Part shown: positions 1,671-62,700 of the stretch, piece by piece
Position numbering within the stretch: position 1 is the first letter of the stretch
Layout: each line of letters opens with the position of its first letter
Assembly: GCF_037042905.1 (NCBI RefSeq)
Contig: NC_087251.1
Location: 41,356,001 to 41,420,000, forward strand
Direction: 5' to 3'
Source of the DNA: Lytechinus pictus
Taxonomy: Eukaryota
Length of the DNA stretch: 64,000 nt
Notes under the pieces: model-generated
Databases searched by the model: none
Told to the model about the DNA's origin: nothing
What the model saw: the letters and a program-made list of their open reading frames with translations, nothing else
Translations under genes and position numbers: made by a program

Positions 1671-2105
1671 TTTTTCCAAAATTATCCTTTAGTAATAGGC
1701 TTTCCATGAAGTACTATAAACATCTTTAGATTTGCAGTGCCCCCAGCAATAAGTCGTGAAAAGCGTTATAGTGAAAGTGTTTTTAGTGGAAAGGATTTTA
1801 ATGACAATGGAAGAAAAGTGAGGAAGATTTTACCAAGTTGCATCCCATTTTGGAATACATACTATAGAAAGGAAATGGTGACAGACAGTATTTGCAGTCA
1901 TAACCTGATTAGCCTCAATTAGGATTTAACAAACTATATCTTGTCCAATTTCTACTTCTTACTCAATAATTCACAATGGTCTTCCACAGAAACTATCCAA
2001 TCCTTGAATAGTTTTGGAATCTGCTTCAAACTATCTCACCGTCCTCTGATATGCTATCATTTAGTCATTTTCCAAAGCAGTAAGTTACATAACTGGCCCA
2101 TCTAA

Positions 2106-2462
2106 GGCCCAAGATACACATGCGTCCGGTTTGAAGCAGCCTCCGCAACCGGTCTAAAGTCTATAATTAGGGTGGTGTTACACATACACCAGAAGTAGAC
2201 AAAACGCTTTGAGATTCTTTATCCAGGACGACTATTCAAGTGACACTTGTGCCTGTCTTTTCACGTCGACATTTTCTATTGTTCGTTAGCAATAACTATT
2301 GTTCGCTGTTATACCTTTTTCTACATGTAATTCAGTGGTCAAGCCGCCTTTTAGGTGTACTCAGTCCGGTTCGGCAGTAAAAAATAGTGAGCATATACAG
2401 ATACGTCGAGCCACCTTCGGGCCGGCCTCGGTCCACCTTTCGACGTATGTGTATCTTGGGCC
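2106..2462. mobile_element. PIF/Harbinger-like MITE in the putative COQ6 3' UTR
   Basis: TIRs GGCCCAAGATACACAT / ATGTGTATCTTGGGCC flanked by a TAA duplication (2103-2105, 2463-2465). Confidence 0.8.
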
Positions 2463-13444: not shown

Positions 13445-13834
13445 TTTGTCTCATGCACTATTGACAGTGTCAGATAAAATAATTGTTCGTTATTTTAATT
13501 CCAATCAGCTATTAAACTGGGAGTTGCTTGGAGGCATTGAAACTGAAAACGATCATTTTCCCGGATCCGAGCTCTGCTTTGCGCTGTGTCTGTCGAGCTA
13601 GGGATCATCTCCTGATCCAATATTTCGCTTGGTGTAAACAATATATAAATATCGAGATATATTGGTTCTGTCTATATTCCATTTAATCTTTGAGGAATAT
13701 CTTACCCAAAAATGTCATTGATTCACGATTTATATTTTTTTAGATGAATATTGAATCCTTATTGGATGAAGCAATTACTTTCATTATATTCCATATTTTG
13801 AGATGATCCCGCAACATCATGTGACTTGATCAAG
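13445..13834. promoter_or_regulatory. Putative bidirectional promoter shared by COQ6 and COMMD1
   Basis: The divergent start codons at 13444 (minus) and 13835 (plus) are separated by only 390 bp. Confidence 0.7.
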
Positions 13835-28300: not shown

Positions 28301-31300
28301 GTGAAACAAATTTTCCCAGTGTGGACAATAAAATTGAATTGATTGGGATTGAATCGATAGATTCAGCCTGTTCAGGAAAACTATTTCCATGTGTACTTGA
28401 TTTGGAAACTTGTATCAGTGAGAAAGAGAAAATGGTCTTTGAATACTGAAAAAGAATCTCAAGATCGAATAAGAGAATATAATTTGTTACATTTGTTTCG
28501 ACATGAACCAGACTCGGGTACATGTATGTTCCTTTGTTTTCTGTTTGATATTATTTTTATTATTTGCAAGTGTCTGAACGCTCATATTCTTGTTTAAACT
28601 ATAGCAGGAAAGTCAAGAGAGCAATCAGGCGCACCACGCACACTCCTCAACCAGCAGTCGTCCCTGCTCAAACAACTCTATCTTCACATACCCCTGAACC
28701 TGCCCTGTCTTCCAACAAAAGGTCATCAAGAACAACCCCTCTCACAGCCACTCCCAAGACCACACCAGCAACCATCAAGACCCCAGCTGAAGCCAAGACC
28801 AGAGGGTCAACCGGTAAGAGATCAGCCAGTGGGTCAGCGGGGAGCAAGGCTAAGAAGGTACGGAGAGGAACATTCGACAAGTCACCGGCTAAGGTTGCCG
28901 TCGAAGCACCTAAGAGCAGCAGTTCGCTGAAGGATGAAATCATGGCTGAGATCGACAGGAAGGTCCAGATGCAGGTTGCCAGTAAGTGTGCATAAATTCA
29001 TCAAATTTCATCTTTGCTGGAAGAATCGTTCTTGGTCAATTCAAGGTAGAGGTGCTGTGGCTCAGTGGATAACTCTCTGGACTTTGAACCACAAGGAGTT
29101 TAAATCCCACTGCAGCACTCGCGTCCTTTGGCACTGCATTTATCTACATTTGCCACTCTCCACCCAGGTGTAGTAAATGGGTACCCGGTAGGAAGGAATT
29201 CTTGAATGATCAGGGTAGCCATGATAAAGCAGGGGTAATAGTATGCAGCGCTTAGAAACATTGGTATTAAACGCTATATAAATGTTGCATATTATTAAAT
29301 CATATTGAATCGAAGGAGTCATGGTATAGTAATACTGTATCTGTCTTGATCCTCCGCTCCCAAAAATAAATAGAAAGATAAACAAAAGTATATTAAAAAG
29401 TTTTTACATCAGATTATACAAGATGCAAGGCTCGACATTAGCGGTGGCCCGGGGCCACCAGAAATTCACCTCGGGCAACCATTATTGATAAAATGTTAAG
29501 TTTTGGTGGCCCGAATCGGGCAACCAATAATTTTCAGAATAGCGCAATTTTTCTCCCGATTTTGCACGCATTTATCAACTTTCTACAGTTCAAATTGCAA
29601 CCCAGTTCGTCATGCGCCCTTTTTGTTGATCTACACACAAATACACACACACAAAGTTTGCATATTAGGCCTACAGCTATAGCATACAGTAGCTATTATC
29701 CAGCCAGCTGCGCCGGCCGGCTGGCGTGAGCTTTGCATGAAGCCATATACAGCTGTGCTCTAGCTCTAGATCTAGCTCAGCCTATTCAGACTCCGGGAGC
29801 TGCGATAAAAAATGTTGCTGCTAAGAAATCTTCCACAGAACTTTGAAAATCTGAGTCAAAGTCACATTTTACACCAATGAAATGACATTCTACAGTCTAT
29901 ATTACGAAAATTTGGTGTACCCTGATAATTTGCAAGCATTAAGAAGAGGAATTATGACCTCTCTTTTGACTACAAAAGACCGATTTCCAAATGAATTAAT
30001 ACACATAAAAACACATAGGCAAGTACATCACAGTCCCACGTGTGCATTTGTATGTATGTTGATACTTGGTTTCTTTCGAAGCTGTGTCTTTTCTAGCCAA
30101 AAATAAACAGACAGTTTCTTTCTTTTTTGTTTATAAATGACTTCTTAAACCACTCTTGAGAAAGTAAATACTTTGGGAAGGCATTTCATTGATATGAAAT
30201 GTGAATTTTTCCAACATTTTGGCAAAAATAGGGAAGGACTTTTCTCACACTTTTTTTCCAGATATAACTTTTGCCGTTTTTTTTCTTTCATTTTTTTTTA
30301 CAGTGGTTAAACCATTTATACCCCTTCCCATTGAATATGCCTGATTAAAAAATATGTTTCTACTGAAAATAAAATAATACAAACTAAAGGATTTAAAAAT
30401 AAAAATGTGCCATTCCCAGAAGGTAAGTGAGAATTATTTGCTTGGCTTTTAATTATATTCCAGTCAGAATAGACTGTTGCCACAGCTGTTAAAAAATATT
30501 TGTAATGGCTTCTTAATTTCCCCTTTTCCCCATGTTTATATTAATTTTGTTTTATTCATTTTTCTTTCACTTTCTTTTCTTTTTTTTCTCTCTAAATTTT
30601 TTCTTTTCTTTTTTTCCCTGTTCTTTGTTTTTTTTCTTTCTTTTGTTTTATTTCACTTATTTCTTTTATTATTTTTGTTTTCTTTTTGTAACATACTTTT
30701 TGAAAATTATTTTCATTTGTTTCCCCCTTTTATGCATTGTTCTAATTTTGCAGCATATTTTTCTGTGATTTTCTCCTGCTATAATATGCTGCAAAAGAGA
30801 AAACAGAAATAAACTGGATTTGGGGCCTGCATAATCTAGGTTTTAGGATTCAAAGAGGAAGAAATGAAAAACCATTGTTTTGTACATCTATCTGAGTTTA
30901 CTATGCACTATTTATTTATTTTACCATTATGAGTGTGTGTCTATACAGAGATTTTAAAAAAAGTCCACACAACCTGCGAACAATAAAATTCATTTATTCT
31001 CTTTCAATCATTTCATTTTTACAACGATAGAAACAATTTATATTTTACCACAAGCCAATTAGCAAAGTAAAATAACAGCAAACAAGGTTTACATACAAGA
31101 TGATTAAGTGAAAGTAACTTGGTGGTAGTGGCTGCAGAATTAATATTTCAGAAGTTTGTTTTATTAATTTTTAATGTGTTTCTTTATATTTTTCGGGCCA
31201 CCAAACTTTAATATCGGGCCACCAAAAAAAATTATTTGATGGTTTTGGTGGCCCGAACGGGCCACCACCAAAAAAAGTTAATGTGGAGCCTTGAAGATGA

Positions 31301-34300
31301 ATTATTTACCTCAGTCATATTTCAACTAAGTCAAGCAGATTTATAATGTCCCTAGAGATTTTATTTTTGGACAGTTACCTGTAATATTTTGGTGTACAAA
31401 TAAATATGCATCCAAAATATAAACATGTGAAATCCAAATTGATGAATCTATGATATTCATTCACCTCCGCTCTTTAAGTTTTAGTGGTATCAACTTTAAA
31501 TGAAAGATTATACACTTCCAGTCACAATTCTCACTATTACACTATAAAAGCACTGAACAAAAGATTTGTTTCCCTGAAGCTATTCTCTGTTATTATTGTG
31601 TAATAGTACTTTAAATTGTGACTGATAGTGTATAATCTTTCATTTAAAGTTGATACCACTAAAACTTAAAGAGCGGAGGTGAATGAATATCATAGATTCA
31701 TCAATTTGGATTTCACATGTTTATATTTTGGATGCATATTTATTTGTATACACCTTGTGAATATAAAAAAGTGATACTTCTGAAAGCTGAATTGATGATA
31801 TTTGCTTCAACAAGATAATAAGATTGTAACTTGTTTGCTCTCATCCGCAGAATCTAAGAGTTGTATCCCGACCAGAGCGCAAGCAACGAAGAAGACCCCG
31901 GGCAAGAAAAACTGGTCCAAGACTCATCATGGAGCTCTGGACAAGATGGAATCCATTGATGCCTACCTCGAGAGGAAACAGAAGAGAGCAGAAGCTTTAT
32001 CTGCCACCAAGAAGCAAAAGGTGTGAAAATACACAAGGGCCATGTTGCAAGAAAACATTAGCAAACCGATTGCAGAGTTATGTTTCAAATTTACAATTGA
32101 TATGTTAATTGTAATTGGAACATATTGATTTTTTACTGCTTCTCGTGAGAAGTAGACCAGCAATCAAGTGCAACTTTGCGATTTATCTTAGATTTTTTTT
32201 TTTTTTTACTTGAAACTGGCTTGCAAATTGGTTGCAAGTTTCTTGCAATTCCCTGTAAGGGTTATCATTATCTTGTCTCCTTTAACATGTAGAACAGTGG
32301 AAATGGAAAAGAAGTGAGTTGCATTATGACTGCCCTTCCTCAATCTAAGTAACATGAAGTTGTTGTCCAAATGTTATTCATATAAGCTGATGAATGATGT
32401 GTGTAAACCATGCGATTGGGTACAAACTGAATATCAGATGTTCTGTATCAAATTTATAGATTTGCCTCCAGATAAATCCAGGTTTTTCCTTATTAATTAC
32501 ATTATTTCGCTTATCTTGTTTCTGTCATTTTAATCCTGCTACAGATCCCAGCTGTTGCTAAGCCTGTCCTGAAACCAAAAGGCTTTGACTTTGCCTCCCC
32601 CAAGCCAGGTAACAAGCCCAAGAACTTCAGCTTTGCTTCTCCCAAGCCCACAAAGGCAACCATGCCCACCAATCCCAAGTCGGCTAAGACAGTCTCCTTC
32701 AAGGTTTCCAAGCTTAAAACCCCAAAGAAGGTCACCCTGCCCAGTACCGTGGCTGCTCCCGCCGTCGAGAAGCGTAAGGCTACTCCTGGTGTCCGCAAGT
32801 CAATATCCGCACTGACTCCAAGATCAGTGCCGAGGAGATCGGTTGGAGGGGTGACTCCGGGCAACGAGAGGAAGTCTTTTGGAGGAACCAAGACGCCCTC
32901 AAGGAAATCAGTTGGAGGATTCTGCGCAGGAGATGGCAGGAAGTCACTTGGGGCTGCAAAGACCCCATCCAGGAAATCAGTTGGTGGTAAGGGACAAGTG
33001 CTCAATTATTTTTTTCAAATGTTAAATTTGCTGCCGGTCTCTGAGATAGTAGTCCGTCACCCTACTGACTTGATCAATAACTAAAATTTGATTAGTAGTA
33101 GACAATGATCCCCTTAAATGAAAAGATAACATTTAGTGGATTGCCATTGATCGCGCTAGTACTCCATGAAGTTTGATATCTTACAATAGAATTAGTTTAC
33201 CAGCAAGGAGCATATTTAAAGTAAATCTTACAACGAGTATGAACTAAATGTATTCACAGTGTCGTAATTATATTTCCTGTTTATTGTGCTTGAAGGATTT
33301 GAGAGATACATGTACTAGTAATCTTAGCTGGGTTTTTTTCTTGCATTTACTTTCCATTTAGATTTCATTTATTACTTATATAGTTTCATGTTTTAAGGAA
33401 TTCAGGAAGTATGTTTCCCTTTCATTGGGCATGGCAAGAAAATTGAGAGTAATTGAATGCAAATCAACTACAAATTTGCATAATTTAGTCAGAAGATTTA
33501 CACTTGACTTTGGGATTTTCACTTATTTAGAATATGAAAAAGTTTCCTGAAACTCCCCATTGTTACAGGGGTGTGACAGTTTACCTTTTTAGCTGATTTC
33601 ATCTTTTTTTGTGTACTTTTTTTGTACAAATATAAAGGAGAGTTAGCAATTTCAGCTAGTTCTATTAGTGGTCACTTATATCCCTGATATAAATCTGTCA
33701 CAAATAATATAGTTATTACCAGTGTAATCTAATATTTTTTGCAGGTGCTTTGACTCCGTTTGGCAAGACAGCAATTGCCACATCAGCAACCAAACCCAAG
33801 AACATGTTTGACCTCAAAGCATCTCTGTCCAAGCCTCTTTCATACAAACCCCATTCAGGTAAAATATTTTACAGATCAAGAATAATGATAGTAATGATCA
33901 TAATAATAATATGATTTATATAAAGCAGGGTGCTACATAACTTTTTAGAAGCACTTGCCCAGTTGGGCAAGTAAATTTTTAAATAGTTGGAATATACTTG
34001 CCCAAAAATCTTTTTCACTTGCCCGAAAAAATCCTTGAAATAAAAAAGTTGACCTCTTCAAAAGAAAGTTTTGCGATTTTGTAAACCATTGACCTTTTTC
34101 TCTCTTGACTGATCTACCTTGTTATTACATTTCTTTTTCCAAAGTGATTTTATCTTGCCTGCCACGACCAAAATTAGGGTCAATATCATATCATATCGAC
34201 CCTAATTTTGGTCATTCTACTGTTAGAATTTTTCTTTCCCAATTCGAGCAAGTAGTTTTGGTCTTTATTTCAAAACACTTGCCCGACTCTATTTTTTACT

Positions 34301-46468: not shown

Positions 46469-49123
46469 TAGATTTTCTGCTGGAAGAATTTTTATATGCT
46501 AATTTCATGAACATAATGTGATCCTAAAACAACATTGAATGACTCAATGAATGAAGTGGATATGAAGTAGCGGAAAGCAACCACTCCCAGACAGCTTTCC
46601 TCTGTCCAGCCTTGTTATTCAGTGAAGGAAATAAATGTATTCAATGTCAATAGGATTTCAAAGACATGAGTACACCCCTATGGAGGTCACCCAGACAGGA
46701 AGTTTGCTTTGAGAAACGGCGGAAAGAGATGGAGGAATTGATTTCAGAACATCTGTCTGATTTGGTGAAACAGACTGCTTTTATTAGTAAAGCATGCTTG
46801 AAGCCGATTGTTTTGTTTTTTTATATAAAGGAAACATCAGAGGTACATTGATGGGAAGTTTGGTTGGATTGCTTCCATTTCAAATTTAATATGACAAGGC
46901 ATAACTGTAGCTCATTGTTTGGAGTATAAATGCCCTCTCACTATTATAAACAAACATATTTGCAGTTGAAACTACTAGAGCCCCTAGTTTCACTTGATCA
47001 ATATATGAGAACAAATTTTGTATTTCCCTAAATCATGTTGAATCTACACATTTTCCTTCATCATTTCACCCTATAGATCTTACATGCAGACTTTGTCTAC
47101 AGTGGCAGATCAAGGAGTTTGAAATAGAGGGGGTTTGAAGAGCAAATTTGAATTTAAAAAAAGAGGGGGCACAGATCATGACAGATAATTTTTTTTCTTT
47201 ATAGATCTTTTCTTTATACTTAAAGCTTTTTTTTCTTTATAGAGATAGCTTTATCAAAATGTATGTTAAATGGATGAATATTTAAATATAGAAGGGGGAA
47301 TGCTCCCTCCCCCCTTCCCCCACTGGATCCACCAACTTCTGTATTTGTGTAAATGACCTGCAGCGTCCCAGAGGATAGGAGGGAGGAAGAAGCAATTATT
47401 GGAATGGCTTGCCTGGCTGTCTGTCAGGATGTATTAACTCCTACTGTATCTGGGTATCATGTCTTGTAAGATAATAGCTTAATCCTAGCCATTGCAATAG
47501 TAGTACATCAAGTTAAAGTTGAAAGTAAAGTTGAAAATGATATTTGTGATAAAAGGGGACCACAAAATAGCAATAGCTGCTAATTAATCCAGACAGCCTG
47601 TTTCACTGGTTCATGGCATTATGTAGAAATTTTGAAAAAATACATTTTCTTTACTGATTTATTTTTCACAAAATTCACCAAGTGTGACTCCATACAATCC
47701 TTCAATTTCACTTTAGAACATTTTTATGCAAAGTGCCCCCTTGACAAGCTTGGTCGCTTTGCTTCCTCGCTTTTGAGTTTCTTCAAAAAATTTGTATGTG
47801 TCTATGCCCCCCTCCCCCGAAAAAAAAAGATGATGTTAAAATACTGTATTCGTTGAATACTTAGTTATAATTCTATTTCATTTAGGAAGCCACAGATATT
47901 CTTCAAAATAGTATAGAGACCACCATATCATGAAAGTCTATCATTCTTTGATCTTGTGAAAATACACAACAAGAAAGAAGCTTGAAGGCTATTTATTTCT
48001 TTAATGAATCATTGTTAACTTTATAGAGTCAGAATTTATGTCATGGATTTCCCCCTAATAATCTACCTCTTTCCATAGTGTCATGTAATTCTTTTCTTAT
48101 AGATGACGCTAACTACTTCCATTTCAATTCAATAACATATAAAATTGGAAGAATATCATTTCAAGGTTCTCTTCGGCCCATTAAGATCCTAACCGAACAT
48201 AGCACTTGAAAGAAATATTTTTGCGAACCTTTTGAAAAATTATTCATATAAAAGATAATGATTGTTACAAGATGCATAAATATATTTATAACAATGAACA
48301 TCTATGATATAAAAAGAGTTAATGTTGAGATGGAAGAATAGAAAACAAATAAATATACTATATTGAATTAAACAGTATCAAATTAAGGGAAATCATATGT
48401 ACATTATGCTGTGGCTATAATGTTTTATAGGTATGTGAATATAATTATAGAAAGGCAGACAAAAAAGTTGACATCTTTTGACTGCACTCTTTGAAAATGG
48501 TACATTTATGAGCCTCTTTGAAAACATATCTATTAATAATAATATACCTGTATTATACACTTAGGATACATATATCACATAGGCAGCTTAATGAACTATC
48601 TACTGTTTTCTAATCAAACACAGACCGTATATACATCCCCGTCCTCAGCTGAATATAACACTGATAATCGTTTGTTTCCTTGCGTTTGCTTTCGTTTTAA
48701 CAAATATACGGGTTTGAATTGATAAGGATCATCGTTTGAGCGGGCAAATAAATAGCGATGAAAACAACATGTATATCTTTAAAAAATCATGTAACGAAAC
48801 GGGCATTCTGATTTCAATGGTGAAGGTGTGTATAGGATACACAACTTATTGATGGCTCATATGAAATCTGAAAGTGTTGGCAAATTATTGGTTCACATTG
48901 GAAGATTGCAACCCTCTGAATACCCTCAATCAAAAAGTCTAAATCACGAACGTTTAGACGGTAAATCCGTTTCTACATGGTGCTGGAACCTCCTTGATCG
49001 CCAGAAATAGAAGATTGTAGAGATACCAGCTCAGCATTCTGTTAATCCAATCACTTTCCATTGTACTAAACAGACTACAAGTACATCATGCACCCCCACC
49101 ACGCCCCTATCCTACACCCCTAT

Positions 49124-49342
49124 TCAACAGCCAGAGCGCTGGGCAACCATGTTGGTAGCGCAGGTACGGGGAAGGTCCAACCCTCGATGTATAAAGTTCA
49201 CCAGATCGTTACAACCGGGGCAGCAGGGTGGGAACGCGCAGAAGATGGCGTAAAGGATGCCGCACAGGAGACCGATCGGCCAGCCAATCACGAGGAGGAG
49301 GATGATCCAAATAATGCTCCATAACCAGCCGCAGTTTGCCAT
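49124..49342 (-). CDS. Uncharacterised 72-aa hydrophobic Cys-rich membrane microprotein, paralogue 1
   Basis: Single coding exon, accATGG Kozak context, upstream acceptor (ttttttcttacatgcacaccag, exon from 49416), 26/68 ungapped identities by hand count with 56523..56750. Confidence 0.85.
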   Translation of the reverse strand: MANCGWLWSIIWIILLLVIGWPIGLLCGILYAIFCAFPPCCPGCNDLVNFIHRGLDLPRTCATNMVAQRSGC

Positions 49343-49460
49343 GGTAACCAGATGAGAATGATGTCACAACGATTGGATGATGCCAATGGGATTCAGCTTG
49401 TTGTTATGGATGTTGTCTGGTGTGCATGTAAGAAAAAAATAAAGATGGTTAAAATTGTTT

Positions 49461-49612
49461 CAGGGGCTGCAGAAGAGGGGAGAGGGGGGGGGGGCTTCAG
49501 CCCCCCAACTTTTTTCCAAAACCGTGTACAAAAACATAAAAATTACCATACGATTGTGATTTTTTGGATGGTCAGCCCCCCCCCCACTTTGAAAACCGTT
49601 CCGCGGCCCCTG
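49461..49612. mobile_element. Small CAGGGGC...GCCCCTG MITE; inverted relative at about 62303-62508
   Basis: caggggctgcagaa / ttccgcggcccctg termini; tttgaaa...ccc and cgtt(t)ccgcggc segments are shared with the 62.3-62.5 kb copy. Confidence 0.65.
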
Positions 49613-50156
49613 TGTTTTAAAACGATATTGATTTAAATGCACTGTGCGAATGCATGAACAAAAATTAAAAGGGAAGCCCGGCCACTCACTCCACTCTTTC
49701 CCAGCTCGCCCCTAAATATATATCTTACAGTTTCATATATTGGCTTCAATGATAACAAAATAGAGATCTGAAATGAGGTTGTTGTTTTTTTTGCCAATAA
49801 ACAAAAAATACAATAGATACTTTTCAATACTTTATTTTGGCAAATAATATGAACTGTCAGCACCAATTTGCTATCTTGGTTGCTTGCATTTATCTAATTT
49901 CTTTCAATGTATATATATATATATTGAACGAAATTAGATAAATGCAAACAACCTTTGGCAACTTTCTTGTAAATAATAAACAGACTAAAAGAAAGGAAAA
50001 TGTCCCGCCTCCTGGGTCTAGTGGTTAAGGCATTGGCGTTCAGAGGCAGGGACCCCGGTTCAATTCAGAATATGGATGACCGCTCTAAGGGACCTTGAGT
50101 GAAACTGTGCACTATTATCCTCTCATTTTCATTTCTTTCACTATATATATATATAT

Positions 50157-50598
50157 ATATTGTAAAGAAATGAATGAAGAGAACAATGGTAGGCGTAGCT
50201 TAAATCAAGGTTCCCCAGAGCTATCTACCCTTTGGAAAAATTGGTGATGCCGAAAAAATGTCTCTGCCGGGAATCGAACCCGGGCCCCCAGCTTTGAACG
50301 CCGGTGCCTTAATCCAGCTGAGGCATGGCCACCTTCCCCGACAAAGGAAATTATAATTGGTATAGTGTCGAAAATATGTCTATCTGACGGTCAATCGGAT
50401 CAGGGTCGCCCTAGCCACTAACCCGTCTCTGTGGTCTAGTGGTTAAGGCACCGGCGTTCAAAGCTGGGGGCCCGGGTTCGATTCCCGGCAGAGACATTTT
50501 TTCGGCATCACCAATTTTTCCAAAGGGTAGATAGCTCTGGGGAACCTTGATTTAAGCTACGCCTACCATTGTTCTCTTCATTCATTTCTTTACAATAT
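50157..50598. repeat. Perfect 156-bp inverted repeat (50157-50312 / 50443-50598) containing tRNA-like sequence
   Basis: The arms are exact reverse complements by eye, with a 130-bp spacer; the left arm abuts a (TA)n tract. Confidence 0.93.
50425..50496 (+). tRNA. tRNA-like gene with anticodon TCA (opal-suppressor-like; probably repeat-borne, function unproven)
   Basis: Acceptor GTCTCTG/CAGAGAC plus A73; D stem GTCT/AGGC with loop AGTGGTTA; anticodon stem CCGGC/GCTGG with loop GT-TCA-AA; 4-nt variable loop; T stem CCGGG/CCCGG with loop TTCGATT; TTTTTT at 50497-50502. Confidence 0.6.
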
Positions 50599-53500
50599 TT
50601 AAAATAAAAAGAGTTGCCAAAGCTGTTGTACATGTATAACTTCACACATTCATATATATATATATGGTTGATAATTGCATGTGTAATGTAATTCTTGCCC
50701 TCTTCTCTCTATCCCTTCCCAAGTGAGTAAAAAAAAACATTTTCAAACATCCCCATGCATAATGCATTATACACACATGCCTGAAACCAAAACTACTCAA
50801 GTAAATTGCTCCCACTCTCTCCTGGCCAGACCCTGTCATCATCATATAGTCTCTCATTTTAAGGTCAAGTTATGACTCACATATACTCAAGTATCATCAT
50901 CAAGCGATGTATACAGCCATGCAGACAAAGAGTCCCATCCTTTGTAGGAATATATATTAACACCTAGACCTTTACCATCTCATGCAAAGTCAGATTATGA
51001 TTGTGCTTTACTTTTAGGCCTAAGGTATACATAAGAATTAACTTGATTGAAATGATGGAAGATTTTCTTGCTCTGTCCTTGTCAAAATGAAAATATCTTA
51101 AAACATGAGGTATTATCATTTAGCAAATTACCAATACCTGATTATTGCATAAAATTAATGTTGAGTTTGTCTATTACTAGTATATAATCATTCATTCATT
51201 AAACTTAAATTTGTATAAAGCTCCACAGGGATAATAACTTATTGAATACATAGGCATCTATAATCTCAATGCTTCAATATAGAATATCAATTTGAAAACA
51301 AGTGAATAGAAACGATTAAATAGCAGATATATAAGAAGTGATATATATATATCTGCCTTTTAAAAATTCCACTGGCACATGTGGTAATTGATTCTGTGTC
51401 AGAAATATCCTTCCATTGAAAAACAAAATTACTGTGATATTATATTCCCCCAAGCAATGACACAAGATATAACGTATTCCCTACTACAGCAACTGGTCTG
51501 AGTGGAGAAAAGGGTGTGGTACGTTCTAAACTCTCCACCACATGGAAGCGACATTCATGCGAGTTTTCCCGGGCGGGGAGAGTATGCCAGAGAAAGAGCG
51601 CGATGGCGCGGGAAGCAAAAAATACATACACCAAAGCGAAACACACACGAAACCATGCACTTACCACGCACAGCCTTTGAATGAAGTAATCCAAATAAAA
51701 CCTTTCTAGCTTTCCAAAACTCTCAGCAACAATCGAACTGATTGAATAAAATCAGAGAGGTGAAACGAAGAGCAATGGTGTTCGCCTCCAACTGTAAGTT
51801 CTTGAATGGATGTGTTTGACTGGTGATGACAATAAAGCAATTAACCCCTAGACGTAGGCTACTTGCTGAACCAGATGCGGACTCTCTCTCGATTGCTCAG
51901 ATCGTCAGATGATCATCCGAGGGTACTCTCTTCATCTGTTAGATCGGTTGAGAGATTAAAGGGAAGTAGAAATTGCTTCCTACAATAGACTGTATACCGG
52001 GAAGAGCTGCAAGGATTTAGTAAAAGACTTTTTATGATTACTTGCAGCACTTTCATAATTATTTGAAAACGTTCATCATTCCCTCTCTATAGGCCTAGTA
52101 TTTTTCCCCAAAGATGATTCTCTGATTTTAAAAAGTTCTGAACCAATACAATAGTTCTTAATCAAAATTATCAGGGCAATATTTTCCATGATTGAACAGA
52201 GAATTATCGATTACTTAAATGTACATTAACAATTTCAAGGCCAGGGTTTGGGTAGCTGTATATGATTATTACTGAACTTATTTGATTTGACTTGCTTGTT
52301 TTTCGGAGTAATGAAATGGAAAACGATACTCAAAATCAATCAAATAAAGCAGGATGGTATAAGTTTAAAATTATTTATAACATCACAAAGTGAACTTTGC
52401 TCTGTTTGAACTACCGTATATTGCATATTTCACAAACAGAAGCATAGTGGATTCAGGAGGGGCGTGCCTCCCTATTTTATTTCATTTTTTTTTTGGCCTG
52501 AAATTTAAGTAGAGCCTCTGACTAAGTATATGCCTCCCCTTTTTAAGTGGCAGGCCTGAGCTTTTTAATTTCCCTTTTCTGTTTTTAGCGAGAAGCTTTC
52601 ATCCGGGCCTGTGCTTTTGGAATTGTCAGAAAATGGGTCTATATAGTCCCGGTCTCGATCTTCCCCGGCCTGTTTAAAAGAAGAAAAAAGTGCGAACTCT
52701 TCTTTTAGTAAGATTCAACTGTTTTCTGACACTGATATCTGAAATAACATATCTTGCCACCTTGGGATCACGAGTCTAGGTCAAGAGTTGGATAGCAAGG
52801 TGTCGTGTTTTACTAGAAACACAGCATTCTACGGTAGTGAATAGCGTGGGTTTACTATATTGCTTTCATTGTCATTGTCATGATGTTTGCACTATGATAA
52901 ACATTCGCGGGTATATTTTGTATAGGTCCTTGGAGAGTGATGTAGGCCTACTGATACTCAAACACTTCATGATTAGTATGGTGGATAGATACGACATATG
53001 TTTGCAAACTTTTCATCCCCGTTTTCATCACGAAAGTCGAAATGAGAGAAATATATGATATACCGCTAGTACGTGGCACCATGCAGAGAGAGGGGGGGGG
53101 GGCATGGGGCAAACAAACATCCCACCCCTCCTCACTTTCCTTTCCAGCTTCATGCAGATTGCAGAATTACGATTTTTTTGCTTTGCTGTCCACACGAAAT
53201 TTTGTTCATATCCACCCCATTTCCTCCCCATTCCCCCGGCCCCCTCCCCTTTTCATACCAAAAACATTAAAACTCCTTGTGCTACAAATGTATTCACTTA
53301 AAATAAATACAGGCCGACACCTGATTCTGGCAAAACACAATAAAACTAATGCAAAGATCTTAGTTAATTTTTTTTTGGGGGTATTCATATTTTTCAAAAA
53401 TTATTTTTATAAGAAAATATCTCTTTCAAACAGCAAAATATGTATATTTCCTCCCGTTGAAGGTCTACCCTCCCCCGCCCCCCCCCCCACAAAAAAGAGG

Positions 53501-54174
53501 GGGAGGAGAAAATGAATTGAATAATGATAAATAAAATTCTCCTCTAAAATAACTCTTTTCCAAGAACCCCAAATCTCCTGTTCAATTTTCTATTCAGATC
53601 CCCAATGTAATTAACATCGTTCCTTTAAGACAATAACGAGTTCTGTCAACTTCCTCGATAAATCAATGTATATTTTCCTTATATTTTGTCCAGGATATTG
53701 TGGTAGACCATTAAGTTGTCATGGGAACAATATTTCTTACAATCTGGAAATTTAATTATAATGAAAGGACAGAGGAAATTCATTATTGAATCATAAAGAG
53801 TTCCATAACCTCAATATCATGGATTTCTTGTGTGATTGTGAGACATAAATTTATTAATAAATGATGACGTGACAATGAGTGCCGTCATATCTAATAATAC
53901 ATCATAACATGAAATTAATTCAATGTAATGGTGTAAAATAAGGAATTTAAAAATAGCATATATAGCTTGACAGAAATGGCATGAATGCTATAAGGATTTA
54001 ATTTATAACAGTTTTATGATTTTGAGGTCTCATATCAATCTGATCAATAATAATATATTATATATAATTATATGGATTCGAATCTTGTTTGATTTGTTTT
54101 CTTACAGTCAACCATGCAGTGGATTAAAGGTTTTGAGGGCCATACCTCGATACCCCACCCTTCCCCATCCATTT

Positions 54175-54248
54175 ATCTCTCCCTCTCTCATCATTTTGTT
54201 TTCTCTCTCTCCCTCTCTCATCATTTTGTTTTCTCTCTCTCCCTCTCC
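54175..54248. repeat. 30-bp direct tandem repeat (about 2.4 copies)
   Basis: tctctccctctctcatcattttgttttctc repeated in tandem. Confidence 0.85.
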
Positions 54249-56522
54249 ACAATGTCAACATCTCTCTCAACGTATACCATCCCCTCTCGATTCTGTATCG
54301 TCGTCGATCGCGCCATTCCTTGTCTTTCCCCTCGCTGCCATCTTTCGGGTTTTATTTCCCTCTTGAAATTTTAAGCTCTTATTTCTATTATCAAGCGAAT
54401 ACTGGGCAAAACAATAATGATGACAATTAGATCAAATTTTAATGAATTTTGTATAGAGGGATTGTAGCATTTTTCCCATGACCTTTTGATTCGACGGTAT
54501 ACACGTATATCCTACAATAATCTATGTTGGTCTGCTGAGGTGTGTTAGACGGTGGGGGGATGAATCATATCATTTACAACCTGAATGACCCATTTTAGTC
54601 AGATAAGAATTAGGACGAATTCACATTATAATATAACTTTCAAATCAATAATCATTTTATTCAAAATCATGATATTAACAAATTGAAACATATCGTACAC
54701 CATAATTTATTTCATGCGATAGAGGGCAGTCAGTTTCAAACACTATCACCACTCACGGTTACCAATAGTGATCAGTGACCATTAATTCATCGTAGTCTAT
54801 ACAGGTACATACCCTTGCATGGTCTTCGCACGATAATACAGGGTGTGAAGTAGGAGACTACATATTCACCCATGAAAGGTGTTTGCTTCTATACAGACAG
54901 AGCGTTTGGGGTCTAGTCTCCATCCTAGACACGGCATACTTTGTTAAAGTGTCTAATATGAGACTGTGCTTACAGACTACACTAACGTTCGATCTATCAC
55001 CACTGGCGATTGATAACACGTTCCATTGGCATTGGCGATAAAACGTCTGAAACACGTGAAGAGGAATGGTAACATGTCAGTTTATATATGAACATGATTA
55101 TATGTGTATAATACAATACATATTTTGACCTGTGTGTATAATTCAGAACATAATAATGTTCCAACCATGCCAACTGAACCCCCCCCCCCAAAAAAAAAAA
55201 ATAGTAATAATAATAATGAAAATACCAGCAGAACCTACAATGGCGATAGGATTCCACTGATACAAACTGCATGTTATCGACAAACTGTTGTATTACAGAC
55301 TGAAACCAATACTAGTACCTGATACCAGTGTGAGACCCTAAAATTCACCCGTTTGATGTGAAAGAAATTAAAGAAAATGAAAATACCTGAACTAAAATAG
55401 GGCCTATATAAAAGCAGTGAAATGTATCTGTAGGCTATATATTTAAGCATTCATCTTTTAGCTTTTGTTTTTTGTCATTCTCTTTTTCTAGTCATATTAT
55501 TGACTTTGAAATAGACCCCCAAAACAAAATATTTGGTATGAACCACGTGTACTGTATACCTACAATGATATCTATACATGAAATCACGAATAAAAACTTA
55601 TTATGTATACTATACAACATAATATAACTTAGGCGAACTATATGAGATGGAAACAAACATAATTATCAAAAATTTACAAAATGAGGTAAGACTATATAAA
55701 AGAAGGCAGACCATTTTGATGTCAATAATGATCTTATATACTAAGTATAATAACAGTGTACATAAATATGTGCACTGTCTGATTTTCCTCACATTTTCAT
55801 TACGAATATTAATGAGAATAAATTTACTTTATGACATCTAGAAAATCAATTAATTATGATCCACGCACTGATATGACGATAAAGTTCATTATGAATTTAT
55901 GATTGAAAACAGGAAAACATATTCAGACAGGAAATATAATAAGCAATGGACCGGCTCTGGTGTTTAAAAAATACAAATAGATTTGAGAAGTATCATGTGA
56001 CGGGAATGAATACAATATTATATCAGCAGGAATATATGCATACAACAGATACAACCTTCAAAAAACAAATTAATGGTTCTGTAAAGAATTCTTAATATTT
56101 AAAAATTCCATTAAAAGTTTCATCGGTGAATCAGTAAGGATTTTAAAGACCCTCTTCAGAGCTTTAAGTCGTTTTAAGGCTCTTTAGATGATATTTTTAA
56201 GTGCCAATAGTTGATTACAGTATAACATTCTCTAGGGAATGTGTGAGGAAAATGAGGACATTAAACTATTCACTCCCCCAACTAAATCAGCATTTTCATG
56301 AATTATTATTCATTACAATTAATCAATATAATCAAAATGACTACAATTGTAAAAATATTAATATCAAAACAAAATTATCGGCATTGGAGTAATTTGCCGA
56401 AGGAATCTTGAGGGCAAATCAAATGGCTGCAACTAGGGTGAAAGCCTGGACGATGTTGAATTCCAAAGTCTTTTTGCATACTATGACTCTCATGAGCGCA
56501 TCTCGGATGATGACATATAGTT

Positions 56523-56750
56523 TCAACCGCACACTGGTTTCTGGCCAACCATCCCCTCCGCACAGGTTTGAGGTAGCATTACCAGTTTTTGTAAGAGTTC
56601 CATGATGTCTTTGCAGAAGCTAATACACACACCAAACGGCATGATGCATACCCACAACCAGGCTACAAAGAAACCGATGGGCCAACCAAAGAAGATGAGA
56701 ATGATGAACCAGACGATTGCCCACAGAATACCTGCTCCTCCTCCAGCCAT
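56523..56750 (-). CDS. Uncharacterised 75-aa hydrophobic Cys-rich membrane microprotein, paralogue 2
   Basis: Single coding exon, accATGG Kozak context, upstream acceptor ggctttcag (exon from 56825). Conserved pattern LWxIxW...GWPIG...FxxCxxxCxD...LPxTCAxxMVxQxxxC shared with 49124..49342. Confidence 0.87.
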   Translation of the reverse strand: MAGGGAGILWAIVWFIILIFFGWPIGFFVAWLWVCIMPFGVCISFCKDIMELLQKLVMLPQTCAEGMVGQKPVCG

Positions 56751-59700
56751 GGTTAAGCTACCCTTGAGAGATTGGCCACGAGACGATTGTGATTGGGACG
56801 GTCAAGAATTAACAGCCCGGATTATCTGAAAGCCTATATATAGACAACAGAAAAATAAAGAAAATGGATACTGAGTTAACATAATTACTTTGAGCAATTA
56901 AATCATAAAATGAGGGGGCATGACTTGACAAGGGGTCATAAAAATCACGAGAGAGAGAGAGGGGGGGGGGAGAAGAAAAGAAGACCTGTAGAGAATAAAC
57001 ATCTAGGCCTGCATGTAACTTTGCGACAGACCTCAACAATTATTCAAAAAGTACATGTGATTTCACATTTTACCTTAGTTTCATTCCTATATATCATAGT
57101 TCTTGTTCTATTTTTTTCGTTCGGTCTTGGAGCTTTTTGCAAACAGCGGCCCCAAGCACACCAACATAGAGAACAGTGCTGAATGAGAATCCGTGTAAAA
57201 TGTGTAGCATTTTGGCCGCCATCCCAGGGCATCGGGGGGGGGGGGATTGGGTTGGTTGTGATATCCTTTTTTTTTCTTTTGCTGATTTTTTATTTATTTT
57301 GGGGGGGCGCTCGTTTTCCTCCAATGTACTGGTCGATTATGTCCCCGCATCCGTTCAAATGCATGGCATTATTTCAATAATAAATACCACCATTTCTCTT
57401 CTAATTTTCATTAATTCATTAATGACACTCGACCTAAGCTAGGATGTTCCACGTGCATCTTTATTACCCACTATTATTTCACCAAAGGGTCATCTACTCA
57501 CTCACCATTAACCTAATTATTTATGTCAATAACTTACCCTATTGGGTTCGTCAACCAACAACGTCAACGAGATCTATAGTTATTATTCTACTTTTATACA
57601 ATAGATAAGGGCATGTGTGTATATATACCACTTGAGTTGCAGGATTGGCTTACTTGTCCTACTACAAAAATACCGTGGTATGAAATATTAACCATTCGGA
57701 GACCATCAACATCAAGTATATGCACTGGATAATGATCCAATGTACTTGAATGACGGAGATGCCTGGGCTTAGTTCTAACATGGGCCTATTTGGTTGTAAT
57801 GTAGACTGTCTTCTTTTTATGCCGTACATGATATGATATGGCATACAGAAACAGATCACGAACAAGCAATAATAAGTGACAAATAGCTGAAAAGGATGAT
57901 AAAATAAATGCCATGGCTGAATGTATACCTGTGCGAACCGATACTGTTGCATGTACCATAGAGCCCACCAATTTCTACATAATGTCTCTTTTGATCAAAG
58001 AATCAATATCAAAACCACATCATTCATGATAATAACTGAATCTGCACGCTCGTTTCAGAGAAATATGAATATGAAAACACTGTTATCTTCAACGGCGACA
58101 CATTGTCATTGATTTAGCTTACCTTTACGGTTTTCCAAGCTGAATTAATTCCAAAACAAAAACACGACTACGCCCTCACGAAAGGCATTTCAAGCTAAAT
58201 TCATATCCAATTAATCCAACGCTACAAATATCCATTGATAATAAATATATTCACTGACAACGTTCAAGCTGGCAATGAGGTACATGTATGTTTGAACATG
58301 GACTGTAATAGGTCCATGGTTTGAATAGGCAATGGCTACCGTATATGGCCTGACCTCATCAATACATAGTAACAACGTGGTTACGTATCAACAAAGACTC
58401 AATCAAGGTTATCCCCATGGCGCCCGTCGAGGGTATATGCCTATATACTAACAATGAATTCAATATATCTATATTATGAAATCACTTTAGTGGTTATAGT
58501 TAAAAACCCCTACAAACTGCGATTCAAATGAAGAACATAAATATTGCATTTCTATAATATGTTATATCACGTTCTGGAAAAGCATAATAAGGGCCTACCT
58601 AATCTAGCTTCTGCCTACCTATAATCTTATCATCAAAGGGTGAAATTCATAAATAGTTTTTTAAATAACTGTCATCACACCAAGTAGACGATAGTCATTG
58701 CATTTCTCATTTTACCTCCCTCTCCAACACTATATGACCTTTATTTCTACTTCCTTCATATTTTTGTAGTTGTATATAGGTTAATTCCCTCATTATTCAA
58801 GCATACATGCAATATGATCATGAAGTGTGAAATTTCTGATTCAAACTATTTTTTGTTTACATCATTTCTGGTGTGTGTAAATTCAGTAGAGAGGGGGGGG
58901 GGGAGAGATGGTAACCACACGCAATGTATATATATATATATATATATATAAAACACAGAGTGTGATGGAAGAAAATAAGAGAGAGGGTGGTAGTGACTGT
59001 AGAGGGGGACAAGAGGTAGCTTGTACTTTTGTAGGAATGGCTATAGGGAGAGAGAAGAAGAAGGAAGAGAAGAAAAGAGAGAAAAGGGAAAAGAGAGAAC
59101 TCAAAATATTAAACGGGCAAATATAGTTCATGCTAAAGCAGGTATATGACAAATGCTGGAATGTTTTGCTTTGTATAGTTGATGATTTCCGGGGTTGCCA
59201 CAAAGTCAAGCTAAGATTATAGTGGCAACCCCTGCAACCTTCATAGATTGTTTTGTTGTACGACCTTTTTCATATTTTTTTATCATTATTGTTAAATATT
59301 TTGTTATGTGCTATGTATTTTCTTTGTTATTTTGTATATGAAAAGTTGCAGAAACAATAAACGAAATGAAAAAAAAATGAAATGATAATATGATAATTTA
59401 ACACATCATTAAACATGTACATGACCTATTCCGTCAGATCATGTTAACCCGAGCTCCATAGCTCCTCGTCCCATCCGTCCTACATCCCTCCCCCCCCCCC
59501 CTAAATTGACCCAAGACAAAAGTATACAATCTTCACCTTTGGATATCTGAAGTACAGGTATATTTGCCAACAAGCAAGCTACTTTGCACCCCACCCCGGG
59601 ACCTCACCATACCCCCAACACAAGTGACCGAGCCTTTCATTTGAACTGAAAATCTAAAGCATTTTGCTATTCGCATCACCACTAGAAATTATCTGGTTTC

Positions 59701-62700
59701 AATCACAGAAAAGAAGGTAATAAGCGAGCTATTAATTTATTTATTTTTACAACAGGCTGCCGAAAACAGGTTTAATAGTTTTCAAACTACAACCAGGTTT
59801 CAAAGTTCATGGATGTTTTCCTCTTTGATCATGGCACCACAATAATCATTGTCACATGAGTCTTGTGACAGGAACGAAACTACAGTTTATTTCTATATTA
59901 TAAGAGCCCTGGCGTACATAAAGAGTTAAAAACAATGGAAGGGGCACATCAAGGCAAGGGGGAGATTTCAAAATAGGCACAAGCGAGCGAAAACATTGAC
60001 CTCTTTGAATTAAGATTTTAACGATAGATCTTTAAATAATTTTCAAAAAAAATAATTTCATATTTCATCCTTTTTTCCTTTCAATTCGTCCCCCCGGTCG
60101 ATTTTTTTTTGTTTGGGGGGGGGGGGGCAACCAAGCCCCTATCCCCACGCCTGCAAGTAAGAGCCATATAAACCTCGAGATATGTTACCTAATGAAAAAA
60201 ATAATTAATATGTCATGTGACAGGATTCCAGATATAGCAGCGATTAAAAAAAATATATCTGATCATCAGGTGACAATAATGTAAATGGAAGAATATATGA
60301 AACCCTTTTCTTCTTCTTTTATTTTCAAGTTGAATGCTATAGAAGGTCGCATATAACAAATATTGACATTACTCTCTACGCAAATGAAAAAGCCCAAATC
60401 ATGCAATATAGACATGGGCGGAAATTCCAGGGGGCAGGGGGATGCGTCCCCCCTACCCAAAATAGTATATAGGGGGACACAGTTTCTAATGTCCCCCCCC
60501 CCCCCCCCACTAATTTTGGTCTTTAACGATGGAAAGAAATACATCATTCAAAATCGAAATAAAACATGTATTTTGGACGAGATGACCTTACTTTTAGGGG
60601 TGATAACCCCCCTTTTTTTTGGGTGGGGGGGGGGGGGCTTGTCCAACTTTCCAGCCCCTGGTCCCCCTACCTTTGGGGAGAGATTTCTGCCCTTGAATAT
60701 AGAGGAAATTGTTGAATACCTATACCCTTCCATAATCATGATAATCAATCAATTCATTAGGCCAAGACAAACTTGTGAAGCAAATTAATTATTGCCGCCC
60801 TGCTCACTGGATCTAAGCTAAGATCAGATGATCTGTTGAGTAAATGCAGACATGCGAATGACGCTATCAGGGAGGGAAGGAAGTGATTAGGTTATATGCA
60901 GAAACGAGACCTTTCAATGTGCCCTTTACTTTAAAGTGCATTCTGATTCAAGAAAATAATGCTGCTATAGACATTACCCATCCATGACTTAGCAGTTAAT
61001 AGATAGCTATATCACCAACTTCATTTCTTAAAAAAAAAATTATACACCTCTATAATTGTCTGTCTATCATTTCATTTAGTTTCATTTCATTTTGGTACTC
61101 ATTTTTGTTTTCATTTTTGAACTCATGATTATAATTATCAGTATTGCAATATTGTACTCGTGAAATGCCTCTATTATCATTGATCAACTATAGTTTTAAG
61201 GAAGTATTTATGCCGAAGATCTTGAATGGATTGATAATCGCCTTTGGCTTAATCTTTCCCCACACAAAAACGGAATATTAGATAATCAGAAACACGTAAG
61301 TTAAGTGGGATCAGATATTTGATAAACTCTCATGTCCATCTGTCGATGTGTACGAGAGTGCAACAAAATAATATACTTACATAGAAAAATATCATAGTAC
61401 ATAGCGGGCATCTTCAAACACAGTTGTGTTACACATGATACCCTAACAAGCATTCTATCATACCAATAAACATTGAAGCTATATCTCTCAAAATATTTAG
61501 ACTTACAGGAATATATAACATTGACGGTACTATTTCTATTGTTTCTATGGTAAACGAACAATCAGCCAAACCATGGACCTATTAGGTCCATGGTCAAACA
61601 TACAAACTTACAAATGGGTAATCATATAACCTGTAACTATATTTTCCCCGGGCTATTTTCATTTGGTAAAGAATGCTATCTAGATAAACTTGCCCAAACC
61701 GGTGATATAATATAAATGGGAGTTACAGCGTATATAACTGGTATAGTTACAACGTAAAATAAATTATGGACAGCAAAATAAGAAAATGATAGACTGTCGC
61801 ATGTATGAACTCCCTTACCTGAGGTATTTTGATGAATCTCCTAAATCCAATCCGAACCTTTGTGAGACTCAATGAAATGGGTCCTATAAAGCTCGTCCCA
61901 AAGTCCAGGAATGAGGATCCATACAAAGTTGCTAGGTAAAACATAATACACGCATACTCTGATGGGTTGGGCTATAGTATACAACTATTCAAACATGGGC
62001 TCAACTTTATTTAGTTAGAGTTAGACTTGGAAAACAGCCTTTCCTTTTCACCCTATGCAGACACTCCTTAGTTTTTATACACATTAGATGTTTCATTACA
62101 AAGTAATGAAACATTTTCCTTTAATTTCATCAAACAGGATGGAAATTTTAGACAAATACAATATAGCAACAGACGATATCAATGGATAATTTATTTTATT
62201 TTATGGTTATTGGAATGCTCGAATAAAATCTTATGGGGGTTTCCTACTTGACAGAATTAATAAGGTTCTACAGCTGACCTATAAAGATTTTGAAACCTTT
62301 TTTTAATGGTTTTGAAAGGGGGAGTTGAATGTGATGGGGAGGGGGGGGGGGGTGGGCTGAACATAATGCACATAATTTTGGTAATCATTTTCGCATTTTT
62401 GTACATGGATACTGAAAACAGTATAAGGGCTGAAAGCCTGAACGCCCCCCCCCCCCCCCACCACCACCACCATCACCACCACCCTTCCGACCCGTTTCCG
62501 CGGCGCCGGAATAATGATTTCTGTACTGAGCATAGTAATGTAAACAAGGCCTTTGCATTTTGAATTACATATCACTATACACTATTCAGAGATAATGAAC
62601 GTTTCAAAAGATAATCAGTTGAACTGGCGTTTGAACGAAAAGATAATGTAAAAGGTAACACGATCTAGTCAATAGATAACACTATATAAGATTATGTAAC

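Follow-up and report, generated by a model that had tools for sequence, protein, structure and literature searches.

Two short open reading frames, A and B, lie on the minus strand of the 64-kb window (the whole stretch of DNA analysed), and they raise the question of whether such small frames are genes and, if so, what kind of protein they encode. The first part has a plain answer: both are real genes, conserved, transcribed and coding, and the original prediction to this effect is borne out by spliced contigs, strand-specific reads and conservation. The RNA contigs give the two genes one structure, a non-coding first exon spliced to a single coding exon, with the following features.

51665..51915, minus strand: gene A exon 1, non-coding (as far as the RNA contig reaches; without upstream ATG)
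49417..51664, minus strand: gene A 5′-UTR intron (2248 nt, GTAAGT...CCAG)
48039..49416, minus strand: gene A exon 2 (entire CDS with 74-nt leader and 3′ UTR; RNA contig, 0 mismatches)
49124..49342, minus strand: CDS A (72 aa, subfamily A)
61819..61909, minus strand: gene B upstream exon, non-coding (GT donor 61818; first 30 of 89 loose contig letters mapped, far end inferred from the letter count)
56834..61818, minus strand: gene B 5′-UTR intron (4985 nt)
56523..56750, minus strand: CDS B (75 aa, subfamily B; exon start 56833; RNA contig 56523–56835)
55097..56522, minus strand: probable gene B 3′ UTR (separate contig pieces 55097–55786 and 56276–56515)

The splice joints are 51665/49416 in gene A (CT..AC ends) and 61819/56833 in gene B, each supported by one contig, with one raw read in addition for A only. 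The contig and read confirm the acceptor foreseen 74 nt upstream of the ATG of A and its donor at 51664. For B an acceptor 75 nt upstream had been expected, but in the one contig seen the acceptor is the AG of 56835–56834, 83 nt upstream of the ATG, joined to the candidate donor at 61818, and the loose contig end behind 56835 has an exact and unique match at 61821–61850; of another candidate donor, 50880, no use was seen. Within three RNA-seq runs (about 6% of each sampled, at low depth, up to position 57200), the CDS bins had a depth of 0.5–3.7 in the first-mate plus orientation and 0 in the first-mate minus orientation, and the non-repeat intron bins a depth of 0. At the 3′ end of gene A, AATAAA/ATTAAA hexamers occur at about 48005 and 47997. 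A tRNA-derived inverted-repeat element lies inside the 5′-UTR intron of the same gene.

The ungapped register proposed for the two proteins holds, with 26 identities and a local BLOSUM62 score of 153 that none of 5000 shuffles reached (maximum 76), and the motifs GWPIG, FxxCxxxCxD and LPxTCAxxMVxQxxxC, as well as the accATGG start, are found in both. Identity by codon position (33, 45 and 26 of 72 at positions 1, 2 and 3, that is, position 2 > 1 > 3) and the conserved relatives present the purifying pattern that had been claimed, 15 of the 26 identical residues being encoded by different codons. The tandem pair is not supported as a recent duplicate. A tree (FastTree, 76 of 230 family units, comprising named taxa and a hand-picked spread, with SH-like supports from 70 columns) places A with sea cucumber, starfish, mollusc and lamprey proteins and B with mollusc, annelid and nemertean proteins, and, judged from sequence relationships, A and B are anciently diverged paralogues, with an early division of the family into two or more subfamilies in animals. 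A third copy was not found in the window by tblastn. Relatives of A include HOLleu_08845 of Holothuria leucospilota (83% identity) and LOC117307186 of Asterias rubens (81%). The family as a whole amounts to 569 clusters at 50% identity (representatives at E ≤ 1e-3; 243 at 1e-10), 150 of these 569 being listed, and its named members come from, among others, insects, a shark, a teleost, a cobra and a diatom. A prokaryote search, in which 41 stretches fit the pattern, yielded one relative, on eukaryotic-looking DNA. Two units in one chain occur in 6 of 247 family proteins.

In the family profile of 138 sequences, numbered here and throughout as in B, indels are almost absent and a few residues are strongly kept: W14 (99%; 229 of 230 family units), P24 (75%), P38 (84%), C42 (98%), P60 (85%), C63 (64%) and C74 (56%), the total number of cysteines per member ranging from 1 to 10. 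The hydrophobic stretch, put at about 30 residues in the original prediction, is longer, an uncharged run of about 36 (positions 8–43; family median 37); the apolar run reaches residue 43 without a polar cleavage region, and A and B have just 4–7 residues ahead of the apolar helix. The hydrophobic moment is highest at 44–59.

Of the 30 strongest covarying pairs among the 230 units, 19 fall on a single antiparallel ladder (i+j 76–87; 5.3 expected), which runs from 7–70 to 36–46 along the whole length of helix 1 and is seen with both mean-field and pseudolikelihood DCA (15–19 of 30 across four settings), at an effective depth of 58–172 sequences, with the reservation that couplings may also stem from shared ancestry. 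No coupling enrichment was found in plain diagonal bins at i+j 50–63 and 98–110. The AlphaFold model of B (pLDDT 84) consists of helices 5–42, 44–57 and 59–69, and that of A has a pLDDT of 80; helix 1 starts at residue 4–5 in the models, the pTM is only 0.52–0.58, and the fold is not independent of the DCA because the same alignment was used. Covariation and the model of B place the turn at 41–44 and not, as had been supposed, at G-W-P, which forms a kink facing the L-P kink. The hairpin is thus predicted to turn at the near-invariant Cys42, laying a lipophilic helix of about 36 residues antiparallel to a charged-face helix: the off-ladder face of helix 1 has a hydropathy of +2.0 with 1% charged residues, and that of helix 2/3 a hydropathy of −1.2 with 34%. 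Off the ladder, the pairs 41–64 and 41–68 rank second and third and recur in the top 40 of 19 and 20, respectively, of 20 subsamples, and further turn-to-tail pairs are 13–49, 5–46, 9–48, 8–45 and 15–41, in a region that was chosen after looking. These couplings suggest a head-to-tail assembly of copies, and would also fit a single-chain fold-back into a four-helix bundle with both prolines as hinges. A complex prediction for four copies of B, in which the alignment was unused and the protein's own fold uncertain, scored 0.00 and gave no verdict.

Our preferred reading, held tentatively and at somewhat short of an even chance, is that A and B are monotopic membrane scaffolds, probably S-acylated, that work in a caveolin-like manner without being caveolins; of the monotopic hairpin first proposed, the monotopic pose remains the best reading, and the placing of the bend at G-W-P is not supported. 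Helix 1 (about 5–42), lipophilic on all faces, would fold back at Cys42 onto helix 2/3 (44–69), with the G22-W23-P24 kink packed opposite the L59-P60 kink, so that the N-terminal helix, to go by the covariation, would stay in the mature protein as an element of its fold, not be cleaved off as a signal peptide. On its outer face, helix 2/3 would carry K47, D/E51, K55 and E65 over the full length of the hairpin, and since an upright spanning pose would pull these charges through the bilayer, an in-plane pose appears likelier, in which helix 1 would lie amid the acyl chains of one leaflet with the charged face at the headgroups and S-acylated cysteines as a likely extra hold on the membrane. The couplings between the turn (41–49) and the open end (5–15, 61–72) may then represent contacts between protomers, copies probably packing head-to-tail into a small membrane scaffold, and such a wedge or sheet, by analogy with the caveolin disc, could displace the lipids of one leaflet and thereby organise or bend the membrane. 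As a counterpoint to the monotopic pose, an apolar helix of 36 residues can also accommodate a tilted span across the membrane.

It is rather unlikely that the proteins are signal-anchored, membrane-spanning micropeptides acting as small regulatory subunits of a pump, channel or enzyme, for which phospholamban and FXYD are the models. Part of helix 1 would span the bilayer with the amphipathic half on the cytosolic surface, an arrangement to which a short N-terminus ahead of a long apolar helix is suited; the strong retention of surface residues such as W14 (229/230) would suit a fixed partner, and the many paralogues could tune a single target. However, the ladder from 7–70 to 36–46 spans the full helix 1 and therefore keeps the charged-face helix 2/3 beside it throughout, and a partner gene is not evident in the 64-kb window. 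Quite improbable is an oligomeric pore or membrane-edge ring after the fashion of viroporins or NINJ1, in which upright or tilted hairpins would turn the charged face of helix 2/3 to an aqueous lumen or use it to cap a bilayer edge. The division into a lipophilic and a charged face, the kinking of each helix by proline and the possible inter-chain couplings agree with this arrangement, as does the best, sub-threshold structural match of both models, one segment of the channel protein MscK (Z 7.3 and 7.8, rmsd 2.7–2.9, 67–68 residues aligned); yet this match stays under the tool's bar for helical models (Z 8–13) at an identity of 7–10%, hairpin arms of about 35 residues are long for a bilayer span, and Foldseek searches of PDB and viral structures returned nothing at E ≤ 0.001. 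The accessible portion of PMC9653487 holds no description of MscK residues 504–575.

It is very improbable that the proteins are cysteine-rich signalling peptides, secreted and freed of an N-terminal signal by cleavage, which is the proposal made for plant TAXIMIN, the nearest named family by features; the available text describes TAX as a protein of 73–75 aa for which a signal peptide is predicted, the mature peptide having 46 aa (PMC4526920). Covariation of residues 7–26 with 58–72 makes the N-terminal helix a part of the fold, the sequence stays apolar as far as residue 43 and offers no polar region for cleavage, and a cysteine number that varies from 1 to 10 is unlike a fixed disulphide scaffold; for TAXIMIN itself, the same portion of text locates TAX1-Venus at the cell membrane and has cleavage as an in silico prediction only (PMC4526920). 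Chance or decayed frames, for which no support was found although raw-read depth is low, are practically untenable against the spliced contigs, the strand-specific reads, relatives 83% and 79% identical and the codon-position pattern.

The role proposed for A and B as membrane scaffolds is worth comparing with that of caveolin, which shares with the family an all-helical, proline-kinked build with one lipophilic and one polar face, the monotopic pose and self-assembly being, for the A/B family, inferred. Two family members carry the automatic UniRef name 'Caveolin', but the caveolin profile-HMM (Pfam PF01146) matched 0 of 31 proteins at E ≤ 10, 0 of 148 at E ≤ 0.05 and 0 of 10 at E ≤ 10, both labelled members included. 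The accessible part of a caveolin study judges one UniProt 'caveolin' label, in Capsaspora, to be spurious, and describes caveolin as forming amphipathic 11-mer discs with a spoke that is a semicircular arc (PMC12330381), whereas the A/B covariation describes an intra-chain antiparallel hairpin. In A and B there is no room for the caveolin hook and signature motif, because the proteins have 72–75 residues with 4–7 before helix 1; the scaffolding helix has no separate counterpart, and no β-strand is predicted. Reticulon/REEP, which are membrane hairpin proteins, and YccF, an inner-membrane component domain, share the long apolar stretch, but the family turns after this stretch, not within it. 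One member bears the automatic name 'Inner membrane component domain-containing' and the NCBIfam YccF model matched 1 of 138 members (E 0.037), and neither reticulon/REEP nor YccF is among the Pfam matches listed. The family had been called unnamed, and so it stands, with no confident match to any characterised family: Pfam gave no match at curated cutoffs for sets of 2, 31, 148, 138 and 10 proteins (the commonest weak matches, with 25 of 64 families listed, being DUF7248 and DUF6057, 6 of 138 each, best E 0.012 and 0.03), NCBIfam nothing coherent among 138 members, and PDB sequence searches one chance match at E 1.5 and, in a second search, none at E ≤ 10. Structure searches (VIA) with both models returned generic helical hairpins only (Z < 8), with the caveolin fold absent among the best 50 matches.

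In place of the caveolin or reticulon likeness originally predicted, the nearest family by language-model features is plant TAXIMIN (Atlas feature scores 0.85 with 185 shared and 0.82 with 172 shared), rated as a lead only; the Atlas clusters nearest B had no Pfam 38.1 family in common. TAXIMIN is Pfam PF28483; its Arabidopsis members are TAX1 (At2g31090) and TAX2 (At2g20562) (PMC4526920). The Pfam copy used gave no match even to TAX exons and is evidently without a TAXIMIN model. TAXIMIN resembles A and B in length (73–75 aa versus 72 and 75), in strong hydrophobicity, with an uncharged N-terminal run of 45 residues in the TAX protein of locus L007 and a family median of 37, and in layout, where a Cys cluster is followed by an amphipathic helix, then by a proline and a short helix that ends close to P-x-C. 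The C-terminal half of L007 TAX aligns ungapped with the family (C44=C42, E53=D/E51, P62=P60, E67=E65, P74=P72), scoring 15.9 bits at one register and −3.1 at the next offset; this score exceeds all 230 reversed family members (maximum 1.9) and all 10,604 window decoys (maximum 1.4) but is below that of the weakest true family member (35.1). The N-terminal half has no family match, W14, W23-P24, Y33 and P38 being missing in register, and the whole-length HMM score of 1.6 bits is reached by 43 of 2000 full and 305–419 of 2000 local shuffles. hhalign returned a probability of 1.5–1.8% (P about 0.03), the TAX side, one full gene and two second exons, being near-single-sequence. The conserved TAX Cys set is not kept in the family, C44 alone being conserved in register (96%; C45 25%, C47 11%, C40 and C42 2%), with C75 (11%) displaced by one residue from C74 of the family, and the TAX prolines are found at 82% (P62), 42% (P74), 26% (P8), 8% (P43) and 0% (P16). 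The ungapped alignment of the C-terminal half at one register makes the link to TAXIMIN suggestive, at slightly better than an even chance, and the A/B family is possibly its distant relative.

No title or abstract on the A/B family was found in a literature coverage that leaves most subscription journals outside, and the hundreds of divergent clusters, from diatoms to reptiles, have no curated model in the libraries searched. The architecture is cheap to test: a 70-residue hairpin, a near-invariant turn Cys and contacts predicted to run head-to-tail. Should the link to TAXIMIN be real, the covariation would speak for the TAX 'signal peptide' being a structural membrane helix, and the mode of TAX action would become directly testable. 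It is unlikely that the family and TAXIMIN belong to a single superfamily, present across eukaryotes, of minimal monotopic hairpins in caveolin-like amphipathic discs or filaments, TAXIMIN being an uncleaved scaffold and not a secreted signal, and such a superfamily would provide a membrane-scaffolding system for lineages without caveolin. Diatoms and plants are not known to have caveolin. Drosophila is given as a lineage without it in the accessible part of PMC12330381. The genes differ in one further respect, the L007 TAX gene having an intron after 104 coding nt, whereas the CDSs of A and B are uninterrupted and their intron lies in the 5′ UTR.

A and B are real genes of a broad, unnamed family of membrane microproteins with a specific predicted architecture and a putative function. 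The two ORFs lie at the originally predicted positions:

49124–49342, minus strand, ORF A, 72 aa
56523–56750, minus strand, ORF B, 75 aa

The gap-free alignment with 26 identities was re-found; its local score of 153 is double the maximum among 5000 shuffles (76). A tblastn search detected no third copy in the window. Codon positions 1, 2, and 3 are identical at 33, 45, and 26 of 72 sites, respectively, and just 11 of the 26 residues common to A and B share a codon; judged from these two sequences, this is the pattern of purifying selection, as had been predicted.

In gene A, a spliced RNA contig of sequencing run X5 spans 51665–51915 and 48039–49416 with no mismatches, leaving out 2248 nt bounded by CT..AC on the plus strand, and the same joint occurs in one raw read of run X16, so that the candidate donor at 51664 and the acceptor 74 nt before the ATG are confirmed. 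For gene B, a contig covers 56523–56835 and continues for 89 further letters, the first 30 of which match 61821–61850 exactly and uniquely; the donor is therefore 61818, one of the candidates named beforehand, but the contig places the acceptor at the AG at 56835–56834, 83 nt before the ATG and not 75. Neither leader contains an upstream ATG. Across three RNA-seq runs, coverage of the CDS bins is 0.5–3.7-fold with the first mate on the plus strand, which denotes minus-strand RNA in most stranded libraries, and zero with it on the minus strand, while non-repeat intron bins are empty of reads; expression of A and B is low in the sampled runs. At 55522–55786, two X5 contigs lie over the probable 3′ UTR of B, and one of them differs by 15 substitutions and 11 gaps, while no difference is listed for the B CDS.

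A profile built from 23 sequences matched 569 representatives of 50% clusters at E ≤ 1e-3, and 243 at the stricter 1e-10; the best 150 of the 569 were examined. The matches listed include deuterostomes (Holothuria, Asterias, Lampetra, Scyliorhinus, Onychostoma, Naja), arthropods (decapods, lepidopterans, one beetle, and spiders), other animals (Nucella, Lymnaea, Bradybaena, Tegillarca, Elysia, Pinctada, Lamellibrachia, Tubulanus, Opisthorchis), and the diatom Thalassiosira exigua; no bird or mammal is among the names of the 30 proteins looked up. Members are named hypothetical or uncharacterised, except for two labeled 'Caveolin', one 'Inner membrane component', and one spider 'BLTX92'. No member tested reached a Pfam or NCBIfam cut-off, the libraries searched contain no curated model of the family, and the listed titles and abstracts of the literature searches show no paper on it.

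In a FastTree phylogeny (76 units, 70 columns, rooted on the diatom), A joins the Holothuria and Asterias proteins (83 and 81% identity, values that make an echinoderm the probable host; support 0.97), and this group sits inside a clade that also contains proteins of molluscs and lamprey (0.83). B belongs to another clade, together with proteins of molluscs, annelids, and nemerteans (0.94). This 70-column tree thus suggests that the A/B split predates the protostome–deuterostome divergence. As to A–B adjacency in other genomes, the two Tegillarca locus tags, KUTeg_014157 and KUTeg_011008, are far apart. Two units share a chain in 6 of 247 proteins, one of which looks like an exact assembly repeat, and in two 306–317-aa proteins, P0157 (Coccinella) and P0167, the unit follows a Cys-rich region, which we take to be PHD-like. 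Five matches (P0095, P0118, P0158, P0177, and P0181) stop or enter unrelated sequence just past position 47, where some animal lineages may thus have a coding intron that A and B lack. An intact 73-aa member (43% identity to A) lies at 1995–2216 (plus strand) of locus L009, titled Nitrosopumilus sp. Nsub; an acceptor-like AG precedes its ATG by 14 nt, and the surrounding DNA is gene-poor and has simple repeats. This is probably animal host DNA within an archaeal assembly, the host presumably being a sponge.

Across 138 sequences (B numbering), residues 8–43 are essentially uncharged, and residues shared by most members include W14 (99%), W23 (70%), P24 (75%), Y33 (81%), P38 (84%), C42 (98%), P60 (85%), C63 (64%), and C74 (56%). 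The hydrophobic moment is highest over residues 44–59, where positions 47, 51, and 55 are charged, and the core has almost no indels. AlphaFold predicts helices 5–42, 44–57, and 59–69 in B (pLDDT 84) and 4–34, 44–55, and 57–67 in A (pLDDT 80). In the covariation of 230 units (two DCA methods), one antiparallel ladder (7–70, 15–67, 17–63, 22–60, 25–53, 29–56, 33–54, 36–46) holds 19 of the 30 top pairs versus 5.3 expected, and 15–19 across four settings. The hairpin turn is thus at residues 41–44 and not, as first proposed, at G22-W23-P24, which instead forms a kink facing that at L59-P60. Off the ladder, helix 1 is lipophilic (hydropathy +2.0, 1% charged), and helices 2 and 3 are polar (−1.2, 34% charged).

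The most probable pose has the hairpin lying in the plane of a single leaflet and helix 1 embedded between acyl chains; an upright monomeric span fits poorly because each arm has ~35 residues and the second is charged along its length. Two off-ladder pairs, 41–64 and 41–68, rank second and third, persist in subsamples, and link the same hairpin ends as 13–49, 5–46, 9–48, 8–45, and 15–41, although an estimate from helix rise sets turn and open end ~35 Å apart in an extended hairpin. Such couplings would arise if separate chains packed head to tail or if the hairpin folded back into a bundle with hinges at its prolines; the evidence is moderate, since the region was defined after inspection and plain diagonal bins showed no enrichment. 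S-acylation would suit the cysteines better than a fixed disulphide frame, because their number varies (1–10, median 4) and they are fixed at the turn and often also at the C-terminus. We therefore lean, tentatively, toward an in-plane, self-assembling, probably S-acylated membrane scaffold. A signal-anchored regulatory micropeptide is a less probable reading, an oligomer that forms a pore or caps a membrane edge is unlikely, and a secreted peptide is very improbable.

In the scaffold that we prefer, copies would assemble into a flat, amphipathic layer, either a sheet or a disc, and so organise or bend the membrane, by analogy with the caveolin discs described in PMC12330381. The family may work like caveolin, but it is not a caveolin, because the caveolin HMM matched no member tested, including the two so labeled, the hook and signature region are missing, and no strand is predicted; a passage of PMC12330381 judges a similar UniProt 'caveolin' label spurious. 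Structure searches with both models returned generic hairpins only, the top match of each being MscK 504–575 (Z 7.3 and 7.8), under the tool's bar.

The nearest named Atlas family of both paralogues is the plant peptide family TAXIMIN (PF28483; scores of 0.82 on 172 features and 0.85 on 185), which is rated as a lead and accounts for just 3 of the 10 best named matches. A short motif fetched eight TAXIMIN loci, with one full gene model (L007/L008). Against the second exons, the family HMM gave gap-free alignments that place C44 on C42 and P62 on P60 and score 6.4 and 8.6 bits (attained by 6–67 of 2000 shuffles); it gave the whole protein 1.6 bits (43–419 of 2000). The hhalign probability is 1.5–1.8%. 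A position-specific score over columns 34–71, picked after the HMM alignment had been seen, reached 15.9 bits at a single register. The 230 reversed members score at most 1.9 and the 10,604 window decoys at most 1.4, while true members score at least 35.1. The N-terminal signature residues of the family are unmatched in TAXIMIN, as are most TAXIMIN cysteines in the family, and the intron differs from that of A and B. Common descent seems somewhat favored, and we leave the family outside TAXIMIN.

The gene A intron contains 159-nt inverted arms, 99% complementary (50154–50601), that contain a tRNA-like unit (50425–50496; Rfam tRNA 60.9 bits; anticodon UCA by ARAGORN). The one-strand read pile-up at 50337–50650 (to ~24,000-fold), with many mismatched reads with loose ends, suggests that a tRNA-derived repeat family, abundant and transcribed, lies elsewhere in the genome. 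Elsewhere in the window, 3956–13450 (minus strand) holds exons of an FAD-dependent monooxygenase (FAD_binding_3, E 7e-6), presumably COQ6, and 27021–33084 (plus strand) holds exons of a Lys/Pro/Ser/Thr-rich protein that has repeated TPSRKS-type motifs and no convincing Pfam match and may resemble a microtubule-associated protein such as NuSAP.
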